Positions 4,461 to 33,338 of a DNA stretch of 64,000 bases are shown here, in pieces. Source of the stretch: Candidatus Sumerlaeota bacterium. Lineage in GTDB: Bacteria > Sumerlaeota > Sumerlaeia > SLMS01. The notes below the pieces were generated by a model. It was given only the letters and a program-made list of their open reading frames with translations, did no database searches and had not been told where the DNA came from. The stretch spans positions 32,826-96,825 of the forward strand of contig JADLAR010000007.1 in assembly GCA_020848155.1 (NCBI GenBank), in the 5' to 3' direction. Within the stretch, counting starts at the first letter, position 1. Each line of letters opens with the position of its first letter. The position numbers and the translations under genes were made by a program.

Positions 4461-5204
4461 TCAGGAAGGCGTTTGCCCAACAACGATGCAGCGCGGGCTG
4501 TGGTGAATGGAAAAGGGGTTTGCGGAGTAATCCCCCCAGCGTTGCACAATGCTCATTCCCTGAGCTACAAGGAGCTGTTCAAGCTCCTGACAGGAGTAGA
4601 GGCGAACGCTTTCATGGTAGGTGGTGCCGGAGGGTTCCTCGACCTGTTTTTCGGCGCGCCTGCCGTCGGGGGTGAGGTGGCGGTGAATCCTTGCGACGGT
4701 TCCGTTGGGGCGAGCTTCGGTCTGCCATTCCGTATTGCATGCAAGTTTCTTCCCGACCAGGTGGGCGTTGAGGAAGTCGAGGAGGAACCAGCCGCCGGGT
4801 TGAAGGATGCGTGCGACCTCGGCAACGACGCGGCTGTTTTCCTCGTCGCTTTCGAAGTAGCCGAAGGCGGTGAAGAAATTCGTGACGAGTTGAAAGGAGG
4901 AGGGGGCAAAGGGGAGTGCGCGCATGTCGAGGCGAACGATGCGTGAGTTTGGAGCGGATGCCTCGCGCAGGAGGGGGAGGGAGAGGTCGCCGCCGATGAT
5001 GTTGAGACCCAGTTGGGCGAGAAAAGGGAGGTGACGGCCTGCACCGCAGCAGAGGTCGAAGGCGGGTGCGCCGGGGGTGAGGGGGAGGTTGCAAAGAAGC
5101 CGGACGCTGCGGGCGGCCTCGGCCTCGTCACGATGGGCGTATCGGTCGAGGTAGGCCGCGTCGAAGGCGTGTTCGTACCATTTTTTCTTTGCGGAGTGGG
5201 GCAA
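4461..5204 (-). CDS. Class I SAM-dependent methyltransferase
   Basis: The C-terminal 245 residues of the 698-aa ORF carry motif I (DLCCGAGRHLPFLAQLGLNIIGGDLS) and the post-I acidic (RLDMRALPF) and LQPGGWFLLDF motifs. The N-terminal 450 aa of that ORF is a P/S/T-rich out-of-frame overlap with the neighbouring gene. The proposed start is the TTG at 5204 (MPHSAKKKWYEHAF...). Confidence 0.7.
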   Translation of the reverse strand: MPHSAKKKWYEHAFDAAYLDRYAHRDEAEAARSVRLLCNLPLTPGAPAFDLCCGAGRHLPFLAQLGLNIIGGDLSLPLLREASAPNSRIVRLDMRALPFAPSSFQLVTNFFTAFGYFESDEENSRVVAEVARILQPGGWFLLDFLNAHLVGKKLACNTEWQTEARPNGTVARIHRHLTPDGRRAEKQVEEPSGTTYHESVRLYSCQELEQLLVAQGMSIVQRWGDYSANPFSIHHSPRCIVVGQTPS

Positions 5205-30259: not shown

Positions 30260-31102
30260 CTACAAGATGTCGACCAGTTTTTGTTCGCGCGCGGCGAAGA
30301 ACCTGATTCCCGCAACGAGCAGCAGGAGCGAAACAACGAATGAGCGCGCGAGCAAGGAGAAGTCCAGCGGTTGGGCGAGCAGGATGGCGCGGTATGACTC
30401 TATGACGCCGGCCATTGGATTCAGGGTCATGAGGAAGTGAAGGGCGGGGTGGATGCCCTTCCAGTTGGCGAGCGGAACGAGCACCGTGACGAACATGCCC
30501 GTTTGCAGGAGGAAGGGCACGGCGTACTTGATGTCGCGGTATTGGGCGTTGAGGGCGGCGAAGAAGAGTCCGAGGCCCCAGCCCGCCATGCACTGGATGA
30601 GGAGGAGGGGGGGCATCACGAGGATCAGGAGGGGCGAGAATTGCCCAGCGATGAATGCGGCAATGAGGAAGACAACAAAGGTGATGGCGAAATCAATGAC
30701 GGAGCCAAAAATGTACGCTCCGGGAATCACCAGGCGGGGGAAGTACACCTTGCTGATGAGGTTCGCGTTCATCTCCATGGAGTTGGAGGCCATCTGCACG
30801 CCGTTCTGGAAGGGCGTCCAGGGCACCAGCGCGGCAAGGTAGAAGACGACGCCCTCCAATCCGTGAAAGCGTCCTGACAACATCCCGAAAACGACGGCGA
30901 AAATGACGCCGGTGAGAAGGGGCTGCATGACGACCCAGGCGACCCCGAAGAAAGTCTGCTTGTAGCGCACCATCAGGTCGCGCTTCACGAAGGCGTAAAA
31001 CAATTCGCGATACTGCACGACGTCGCGAAGCGTCTGCATGAACCGCACGGACGCGCGGGAGGAAATGATGGTTTCGGGCAGGTGCGCGCCGTGGTCAGAC
31101 AT
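30260..31102 (-). CDS. ABC-2 type polysaccharide/O-antigen export permease (Wzm/KpsM/TagG-like); no ATPase partner is adjacent
   Basis: It is a six-TM protein with an ABC-2 signature (...VKRDLMVRYKQTFFGVAWVVMQPLLTGVIFAVVFG...). Confidence 0.75.
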   Translation of the reverse strand: MSDHGAHLPETIISSRASVRFMQTLRDVVQYRELFYAFVKRDLMVRYKQTFFGVAWVVMQPLLTGVIFAVVFGMLSGRFHGLEGVVFYLAALVPWTPFQNGVQMASNSMEMNANLISKVYFPRLVIPGAYIFGSVIDFAITFVVFLIAAFIAGQFSPLLILVMPPLLLIQCMAGWGLGLFFAALNAQYRDIKYAVPFLLQTGMFVTVLVPLANWKGIHPALHFLMTLNPMAGVIESYRAILLAQPLDFSLLARSFVVSLLLLVAGIRFFAAREQKLVDIL

Positions 31103-31135
31103 GCGGAAGATTGATGGGGTGAAAGTAGCCGGGTA

Positions 31136-31663
31136 TCATCCTCGGATTCCGCACGCAGATTTGAATGTGGTCGAGGGAACGAATGCCTGCATTTTCGTGG
31201 AGGGGCCTGCCTTCGATGAAAAAGGCGCGAATGGTGTCGAATGGCGACTGTCCTTCAGATTGCCGAAGGGTATGCATGTTTCAAAAACCGCACAATCCAG
31301 ATGACGAGCCTTAAAGTCCTTGCCGGAATTCTTCGCGACCGGCTGATGGAGCCTTTCGCAGGGTGTGATGTCTTTCCGAGAGTTCTCCTCCACGGGGGAC
31401 AAGGCGTTAGCTTCCATAAGATTCAGGCAGTTTCCCAGATCAATGACGGCTCCGATCACAGCAGGGTTTTGGGTTTGGGATCGGGTTTCGTATTTGGCGC
31501 AATGCGATGCGCGTTCGGCGCTGTGTTCCCAAAAATAAAGATCATGGCCCAGCCAGTCATATTCATTCTTGCTGGCTAGAAGCTTTTTTTTCCCGGTGAC
31601 GACTTGCTGCGCCAGGTGTTTACCGCAGCCGTGATACGCGACAACGTATCTGTTCCAAGGCAT
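31136..31663 (-). CDS. Hypothetical 175-aa protein; a candidate toxin partner of the upstream small ORF
   Basis: Its ATG overlaps the TAA of the preceding 69-aa ORF (TAATG). It has a conserved-looking N-terminus (MPWNRYVVAYHGCGKHLAQQVV...DWLGHDLYFWEHS). Its C-terminal third is S/P/T-rich and may be partly non-coding. It is locally lower in GC. Confidence 0.4.
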   Translation of the reverse strand: MPWNRYVVAYHGCGKHLAQQVVTGKKKLLASKNEYDWLGHDLYFWEHSAERASHCAKYETRSQTQNPAVIGAVIDLGNCLNLMEANALSPVEENSRKDITPCERLHQPVAKNSGKDFKARHLDCAVFETCIPFGNLKDSRHSTPFAPFSSKAGPSTKMQAFVPSTTFKSACGIRG

Positions 31664-31872
31664 TAGTTGGAGTCGCGATAAGACTTCGCGAGTTCTCCCT
31701 TTTCATTGAGAACTCCAGCCTTCTGTAAAAACGCCCGGGCGCTTTTGGGGGACTTCATGGCTTTTGCATAAGCGCGATTCAAAGTGGCCAATTCATCCTT
31801 CAGCCATTCTTGCTGCGAAGCCGGAAGCGTTGCCTTCGATGTTGTCTTTCTTGCCCTTGCACGCGCGGCCAT
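31663..31872 (-). CDS. Small basic/helical protein (69 aa); a candidate antitoxin-like partner
   Basis: Its sequence is MAARARARKTTSKATLPASQQEWLKDELATLNRAYAKAMKSPKSARAFLQKAGVLNEKGELAKSYRDSN. It is Lys/Ala-rich and its stop overlaps the start of the downstream gene. The long upstream extension in the ORF track (to 32304) is rejected. Confidence 0.4.
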   Translation of the reverse strand: MAARARARKTTSKATLPASQQEWLKDELATLNRAYAKAMKSPKSARAFLQKAGVLNEKGELAKSYRDSN

Positions 31873-32037
31873 TGAGCGTTCTCCACTTACGATTTGGGCA
31901 TTCTCCACGATGGTCGGGGCACTGGCAAGGGCAATGGTCCCGGCGGCCCTACTTGGCCTTGCTTGTTGAGGGGGTCTGGTGCAGCGATTGTTGCATACAA
32001 GGGACGCTGACAAGACCGCCAAGGATTTATACTGCCA

Positions 32038-33050: not shown

Positions 33051-33338
33051 ATGGCGGCGTTTCGCCCACCGAGGGAGCGGATCGACAGGTTGGCGGTGAT
33101 GGTCGAGGCGGCACTGAAGCAGAGTGCGGCGGTGACACTGAAGAAGCCGGCGGAGGGGCGGGCGATCTTCTCCAACGCGCTGGCGGAGAACCTGCGCATT
33201 GAGCACGACATCGAGCAGGAGACGCTGGCAACGCTGCAGAAGCATGGCCAGGCGATCTACCAGCAGAACGCGGACTTCCAGGCGCTCCTGAACCAGGGCA
33301 AGAAGGTCATCGCGAAGAAGCGCGGGTTCGTTTTGTAG
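33051..33338 (+). CDS. Hypothetical 95-aa protein translationally coupled to phoH
   Basis: Its start is 3 nt after the phoH stop. No family was recognised. Confidence 0.4.
   Translation: MAAFRPPRERIDRLAVMVEAALKQSAAVTLKKPAEGRAIFSNALAENLRIEHDIEQETLATLQKHGQAIYQQNADFQALLNQGKKVIAKKRGFVL

Follow-up and report, generated by a model that had tools for sequence, protein, structure and literature searches.

A frameshifted relative of the ADP-ribosyltransferase CmdT and its small partner as a putative toxin-antitoxin-like module in a Candidatus Sumerlaeota genome

Background

ADP-ribosyltransferase (ART) toxins accompanied by cognate antitoxins are an established kind of system, exemplified by DarTG, ParST, MbcTA and CmdTAC. 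CmdTAC is identical with the anti-phage system PD-T4-9, and its CmdT component ADP-ribosylates adenine N6 in the GA dinucleotides of single-stranded RNA, which blocks translation (PMC9519451, PMC11618068, 10.1101/2024.02.24.581848). Mutation of one CmdT tyrosine (Y41 in ECOR22 numbering) abolishes defence (PMC11618068). This precedent, in which mRNA ADP-ribosylation shuts down translation against phage, has so far been tied to a three-gene, chaperone-dependent system. Here, we describe a pair of small genes in a 64-kb stretch of a Candidatus Sumerlaeota genome (assembly GCA_020848155.1, contig JADLAR010000007.1, positions 32,826 to 96,825; hereafter, the window). The initial annotation of this DNA correctly described two co-oriented, overlapping minus-strand open reading frames (ORFs) of 69 and 175 amino acids (aa), which have one base in common (...AAC TAATG CCT...; coordinates in Table 1), and interpreted them either as a novel addiction module or as unrecognised components of a surface-glycan pathway. 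Our analysis shows that the larger gene is a frameshifted member of a large family with remote homology to CmdT. The locus is probably a horizontally acquired copy of a widespread, unnamed toxin-antitoxin (TA)-like module, in which an intact antitoxin accompanies a dead toxin and which has no role in the glycan pathway. The family is undescribed in the literature searched (a computational survey may catalogue it); neither Pfam nor NCBIfam holds a model for it, and PGAP labels its members "hypothetical".

The larger protein and its relatives

A homology search with the 175-aa protein returned about 495 relatives of 187-206 aa, and an exhaustive profile search yielded 3,726 representatives at 50% identity, the best 150 matches of which comprised close members only, with no CmdT among them. 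The motifs YHGC...DWLGH.LYFWE, in which the initial annotation had seen a loose resemblance to PARP/DarT-like enzymes, are real and form the most conserved stretch of this family. Five representatives are far longer than 190 aa or contain two profile-matching stretches (P0297, 692 aa; P0179, P0195, P0201 and P0207, about 290-315 aa) and may be ART-domain fusions or internal duplications.

Searches of Pfam and NCBIfam gave nothing useful for either window protein, and the window protein and both family profiles, used as queries against PDB sequences, produced chance matches only. The only defence model matched by the window protein was PADLOC PD-T4-9_A (CmdT), and this match was weak (E = 0.005); all 48 family members tested matched the same model, with a best E of 5e-10. 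Six of these 48 members also reached Pfam PARP and two reached Exotox-A_cataly (E ~1e-5), PF09009 being present in P0011.

For a direct comparison with CmdT, we turned to a P2-like prophage of E. coli with a genuine cmdTAC locus, which we located via a primer sequence given in the supplement of the CmdTAC paper and which PADLOC recognised in all three genes (CmdT, 4e-97; CmdA, 3e-38; CmdC, 7e-61). The hhalign comparison of the family profile with this CmdT reached 94.4% probability (E = 8e-8) with 23% identity over 121 columns. It paired GYHGC with GFHNC and DWLGHGxYFWE with QWLTQGYYFWT, placing the family residue Tyr43 on the CmdT tyrosine whose mutation abolishes defence. The alignment ends before the C-terminal third, and scores against PD-T4-9_A were 14-40 bits for the family versus 321 bits for genuine CmdT. 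These comparisons indicate clear remote homology and point to a remote sister family of CmdT rather than to CmdT orthologues.

One additional piece of evidence was provided by structure prediction. The AlphaFold model of the intact homologue P0004 was confident (pLDDT 89.7), and Foldseek matched it to PARP4, PARP1, exotoxin A, diphtheria toxin, AcrIF11 and the RES toxins ParT and MbcT, that is, to the ART fold and not to a glycan-modifying enzyme family. His11, Tyr43 and Glu154 (P0004 numbering) lie on predicted strands; the histidine and the tyrosine are conserved in at least 98% of members and the glutamate in 96%, and the complete triad is present in the window gene once its frameshift, described below, is repaired. 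Because the CmdT alignment, the Foldseek matches and the conserved triad agree, we consider it essentially right that the family has an H-Y-E (PARP/diphtheria-toxin-class) ART fold, with catalysis predicted. The suggested likeness to PARP therefore stands, and the likeness to DarT does not: no Pfam DarT match was found, and the nearest sequence relative is CmdT. Membership of the RES family, likewise raised as a possible fold, was rejected, as the 48 members gave no Pfam RES match and the family keeps H-Y-E rather than R-E-S; the likeness to RES is structural only.

A related question is whether the ~190-aa protein could be an NAD+-degrading enzyme in the style of RES, MbcT or NatT, or else a non-toxic regulatory ART, with the small protein serving as a regulator or substrate. 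The structural matches to RES toxins are a point of contact with such an explanation, which we regard as improbable, since the sequence matches are to CmdT, PARP and exotoxin A and not to RES, and the R-E-S motif is missing. Moreover, the mobility, plasmid carriage and recurrent toxin-only inactivation reported below fit a toxic effector.

A frameshift in the enzyme gene

The identical protein sequence is recorded, as hypothetical, in a metagenome-assembled genome (MAG) of Candidatus Sumerlaeota, on the contig with IT570_02860/02865. The 175-aa ORF fits the family up to approximately residue 129 (LDCAVFET), while its remaining S/P/T-rich tail has no counterpart in 33 aligned homologues. The conserved C-terminal third of the family (FDT[IV]RAFFxEG...LDHIQICVRxP...GYFxP) is encoded in another frame, in a 60-aa ORF at 31095..31277. 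The family hidden Markov model (HMM) matched the two adjacent frames back to back, with 31139..31702 covering model positions 1-135 (E = 2e-48) and 31098..31280 covering model positions 133-188 (E = 9e-23). A single base is lacking between 31277 and 31276 (DNA GAA ACA TGC ATA), and the addition of one base (GAA ACA [N]TG CAT ACC) restores E-T-L-H-T-L-R-Q, in agreement with the family consensus E-x-L-H. The repaired gene encodes ~189 aa, within the length range of its relatives, and its stop codon overlaps the ATG of the downstream wzm-like gene by 8 nucleotides (nt) (ATGTCTGA). Because the family C-terminus lies in another frame, the 175-aa ORF is a frameshift artefact and not the true gene product. 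Its S/P/T-rich tail, which the initial annotation had rightly found suspicious, is out-of-frame read-through; the inactivation of the gene had not been noticed there. As assembled, the product lacks model strands 147-184 and the catalytic glutamate, which is out of frame, so that the annotated ORF does not have the H-Y-E triad. Judged by the model, a protein without these elements cannot be an active ART.

Is the frameshift a genuine lesion, or was it introduced during sequencing or assembly? In the latter case, the module would be intact in the organism and would represent a live ART TA pair whose translation is coupled to that of wzm. In the shifted frame, the 59 C-terminal codons are free of stops and still encode 9 of the 10 highly conserved residues, the catalytic glutamate among them, and the sequence occurs on a single contig. 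Since the shifted part is otherwise undecayed, the lesion must be either very recent or an assembly error. On the other hand, the site is not a homopolymer (ACATGCAT), and the neighbouring genes are long and unbroken (718, 694 and 1036 aa), which argues against an assembly riddled with insertions and deletions. The repaired protein also carries substitutions (D14G, G41D and Y156H) in 3 of the 48 highly conserved columns, against a family median of 0; Gly41, invariant in 113 relatives, precedes the catalytic tyrosine by two residues and is replaced by Asp in the window copy. Moreover, independent toxin-inactivating mutations occur in relatives. One locus carries a single in-frame stop at codon ~19 of the enzyme gene (L016, 704-1264), and another carries an in-frame stop together with the loss of the catalytic histidine and other conserved residues (L086, 4983-5543), the upstream partner ORF being kept in both cases. 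We therefore regard an assembly error as rather unlikely, although it carries real weight. That the frame is broken in the assembled sequence is an observation; that the break is biological we infer with fair confidence, because the site is not a homopolymer and the long neighbouring genes are intact.

Programmed ribosomal frameshifting could also, in principle, join the two frames into a full-length enzyme, given that both halves are intact and that one -1 step would suffice. This explanation has next to no probability. A TGA in the target frame just upstream (...CGF-stop-NMHTL) leaves an interval of only ~6 nt, this usable interval contains no X XXY YYZ slippery heptamer, and the relatives examined have one uninterrupted ORF, except for L016 and L086, which carry in-frame stops and no frameshift.

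The small partner protein

Queried by itself in a word-indexed homology search, the 69-aa protein retrieved no sequence other than its own. The partner family was instead recovered by synteny combined with an iterated HMM, followed by a profile search. On four unrelated contigs carrying ART homologues, an ORF of 50-65 aa that is alignable to the 69-aa protein was present 2-10 nt upstream of the ART gene, and the iterated HMM detected the partner in 85 of 89 ART loci, nearly always immediately upstream. In the consensus, an amphipathic helix forms the N-terminal part, and S/K..A..FL..AGI..K.G.L...Y[RK] stands at the C-terminus or close to it.

The AlphaFold2 model of the 69-aa protein (pLDDT 82) consists of two helices (residues 18-38 and 42-52) forming a hairpin and a C-terminal turn. 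It shows neither a ribbon-helix-helix (RHH) strand nor an Xre-type helix bundle, and Foldseek returned nothing below E = 2.8 for it; hence, both folds, which had been put forward as candidates for this protein, were rejected. No Pfam, NCBIfam, PADLOC or PDB match was obtained for the 69-aa protein. When 45 partners were searched against Pfam and PADLOC, only isolated single-member chance matches appeared (E 0.007-0.1), none of them to PD-T4-9_B/CmdA and none to a helix-turn-helix (HTH) domain, and hhalign gave a probability of 0.3% for the partner against CmdA. From its position in the locus, we infer that the small partner represents a new antitoxin family.

The partner genes show some structural variety. 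Tandem copies precede a single ART gene in two loci (two to three copies, one of them fused, in L013, 404-1245; two copies in L048, 4633-4970). A subclass found in L069, L079, L034 and L074 (ORFs at about 4730-4990) has the same N-terminal helix with the tail DPE[FY]ARE[VI]L...LTPxQRxER in place of AGI..G.L..YR, which suggests, as far as the sequences can tell, a modular exchange of the putative neutralising segment. In loci of the Bacteroidota type (L043, L060, L062, L066, L067, L076, L082, L083 and L087), the partner is extended at its C-terminus by Y[KT]NLCIPxxQ and has a 25-nt overlap with the ART start.

Conservation, genomic context and mobility of the pair

Another important question is whether the pair belongs to the genes beside it or behaves as a unit of its own. 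Of 80 loci, 21 have a stop/start spacing of -1 (TAATG or TGATG), as in the window, and 73 have one of at most 13 nt. Among 84 non-redundant loci, no third conserved gene was found and no flanking family was common to more than five; none of the shared families was wzm, epimerase or GT39-like. A total of 70 plasmids carry the ART gene, and half of these are conjugative. Two were inspected, and in each the ART gene directly follows a 57-aa ORF, both genes being annotated as "hypothetical"; one is an 8.5-kb plasmid of Acinetobacter pittii, and the other is a plasmid of the P. syringae group in which the pair is located near MazEF and a replication gene. Intact pairs, given here as partner and ART, include WP_005759896.1 and WP_010214332.1 of P. 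amygdali and WP_169744686.1 and WP_043963130.1 of A. pittii. GTDB species genomes contain at least 580 loci, distributed among Verrucomicrobiota, Planctomycetota, Bacteroidota, Bacillota, Leptospira, Pseudomonadota and others, and one Verrucomicrobiales contig harbors two copies of the module (L069 and L079). The pair thus has genomic features of type II TA systems, namely, small co-oriented genes that overlap or nearly overlap and are passed on as a unit, surroundings that vary and a presence on mobile elements.

In the window, the pair has a GC content of 0.505-0.52, about 10 points below that of its flanks (about 0.60). The wzm-like ABC-2 permease gene lies directly downstream on the same strand, followed on that strand by genes for an NAD-dependent epimerase (PF01370, E = 9e-36) and a PMT_2-like membrane glycosyltransferase, as the initial annotation had recognised. 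The permease showed a collinear, weak match to NCBIfam NF050109 (Wzm/RfbD, E = 7e-11), while the Pfam search gave none at E <= 1. The absence of a nearby ATPase partner, also recorded earlier, was borne out by a crude regular-expression search for a Walker-A and ABC-signature motif pair, which found none across the window, so that the permease has the appearance of an orphan.

This arrangement could suggest that the two proteins are dedicated components of the downstream surface-glycan pathway, especially as the genes are tightly packed, the repaired ART stop overlaps the wzm start and the permease is without an ATPase in the window. Such a role is nevertheless extremely improbable. The pair recurs beside unrelated genes and on small plasmids near replication and MazEF genes; its larger product has an ART fold; its GC content sets it apart from its flanks; and the enzyme gene is broken here. 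Because partner conservation, variable context, plasmid carriage, phyletic spread, toxin-only inactivation and low GC content all converge, the data fit an autonomous, mobile TA-like module, as the addiction-module alternative of the initial annotation had proposed, with toxicity predicted from homology. The pair is a low-GC insert, and its position at the head of the polysaccharide genes, formerly read as leading their operon, is a coincidence.

Proposed mechanism and comparison with known systems

If it works like CmdT and other ART toxins, the intact ~190-aa enzyme would arrest growth by ADP-ribosylating a cellular target at the expense of NAD+. Judging from its closest relative, this target may be RNA; protein, DNA or NAD+ breakdown is also conceivable. 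The translationally coupled helical protein of 50-70 aa (A..FL..AGI..K.G.L...YR) would bind the enzyme directly and neutralise it in type II style, with neither a SecB-like chaperone nor a ChAD-tailed CmdA. The toxin would be freed once the partner is lost, be it with the plasmid or by phage-induced shut-off. In the window copy, the 1-nt deletion after codon 129 puts the last three core beta-strands and the catalytic glutamate out of frame. A more specific version of this mechanism is possible, and we advance it only tentatively: a chaperone-independent TA or defence module in which a CmdT-like enzyme acts on RNA or on a new target, and a partner with a new fold places its G-x-L-x-x-x-Y-R tail in the NAD+ pocket.

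Several points weigh against the interpretation of the locus as a TA-like module with a dead toxin. CmdT is poorly toxic without CmdA (PMC11445053), and simple toxin/antitoxin logic may consequently not transfer. Toxicity and neutralisation are predictions for every member. In the small partner, neither a DNA-binding fold nor that of a known antitoxin could be detected, and it does not resemble CmdA. Finally, the frameshift rests on one MAG contig, in which the out-of-frame C-terminus is almost undecayed.

Among the described systems, CmdTAC is the most similar. The enzymes agree in size (~190 aa in the family and 192 aa in CmdT) and in the diphtheria-toxin-type H-Y-[E/D/Q] triad, with the histidine strand and the tyrosine aligned, and both belong to small mobile operons with a small helical partner. 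In contrast to CmdTAC, where CmdA is encoded downstream of the toxin, the partner gene comes first in the family; the partner is unrelated to CmdA and has no long disordered ChAD tail; a SecB-like CmdC is absent from the 84 loci, the neighbours in the window being wzm and phoH; and the sequence scores are far below those of true CmdT. ParT/ParS, RES-Xre, MbcT/MbcA and NatT/NatR differ in that their toxins have the RES motif and match Pfam RES, unlike the family, and in that their antitoxins are Xre/DUF2384 proteins with an HTH, whereas a two-helix protein of 50-70 aa is found here. DarTG is similar in its ART toxin acting on nucleic acid, its TA organisation and its role in phage defence, but the features of its DarT (DUF4433) toxin and macrodomain antitoxin are not found here. 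The catalytic domains of diphtheria toxin, exotoxin A and PARP share the fold and the H-Y-E triad class; the family differs from them as a stand-alone minimal domain without translocation, receptor or regulatory domains, which is located inside the cell and accompanied by a small immunity-like protein.

What is new is thus a large sister family of CmdT, a novel minimal partner, a reversed gene order and a chaperone-free variant of ART TA systems. The sister family is much larger, with at least 3,700 clusters at 50% identity, at least 580 loci in species genomes of many phyla and 70 plasmids. If the proposed mechanism holds, toxic or defensive ADP-ribosylation of mRNA would be far commoner across phyla and plasmids than the distribution of CmdTAC suggests. 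The characterisation of an intact member would test the generality of nucleic-acid ADP-ribosylation toxins, define the antitoxin family and improve thousands of annotations. For the Sumerlaeota genome, the lesson is that the 175-aa protein of the annotation is an artefact of the frameshift and that the pair stands outside the glycan operon, its copy here probably being a disabled remnant.

Features of the locus and its surroundings

The coordinates of the features are collected in Table 1.

Table 1 Features of the gene pair and adjacent DNA (positions in the 64-kb window)
Feature	Position	Strand	Basis or remark
Small partner, putative antitoxin, intact, 69 aa, motif SPKSARAFLQKAGVLNEKGELAKSYR near the C-terminus	31663..31872	-	Partner HMM, E 6e-26
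175-aa ORF as annotated	31136..31663	-	
CmdT-like ADP-ribosyltransferase, whole gene, ~189 aa if repaired, 1-nt deletion	31095..31663	-	Family HMM on two frames
In-frame N-terminal part, residues 1-129, with His11 (31631-31633, YHGC) and Tyr43 (31535-31537, GHDLYFWE)	31277..31663	-	
Frameshift site, base lacking between 31277 and 31276 (ACA, then TG CAT)	31275..31279	-	Both-frame translations against consensus E-x-L-H
C-terminal part in shifted frame (HTLRQSEGQSPFDTIRAFFIEG...GYFHPINLPHV-stop), predicted catalytic Glu at 31212-31214; stop overlaps wzm start at 31102	31095..31274	-	
Non-conserved out-of-frame tail of the annotated 175-aa ORF (CIPFGNLKDSRHSTPFAPFSSKAGPSTKMQAFVPSTTFKSACGIRG)	31136..31276	-	No counterpart in 33 homologues
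Sigma-70-like promoter match TTGCCA-17-GAGAAT upstream of the small gene	31900..31928	-	Consensus match alone, weak
10-nt inverted repeat GCAAGGGCAA/TTGGCCTTGC, 18-nt spacer, in the phoH/small-gene intergenic region, overlapping the -35	31925..31962		
Wzm-like ABC-2 permease gene	30260..31102	-	
95-aa ORF after the phoH-like gene	33051..33338	+	

The window contains no second copy of either gene of the pair. The minus-strand ORFs at 22-26 kb, which were checked as possible downstream members of the operon, gave no Pfam match and probably do not represent genes. A phoH-like gene lies upstream of the small gene in divergent orientation; the 95-aa ORF, for which NCBIfam gave no match, follows the phoH-like gene after a gap of 3 nt. 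The inverted repeat in the intergenic region may be a putative operator or a chance match.
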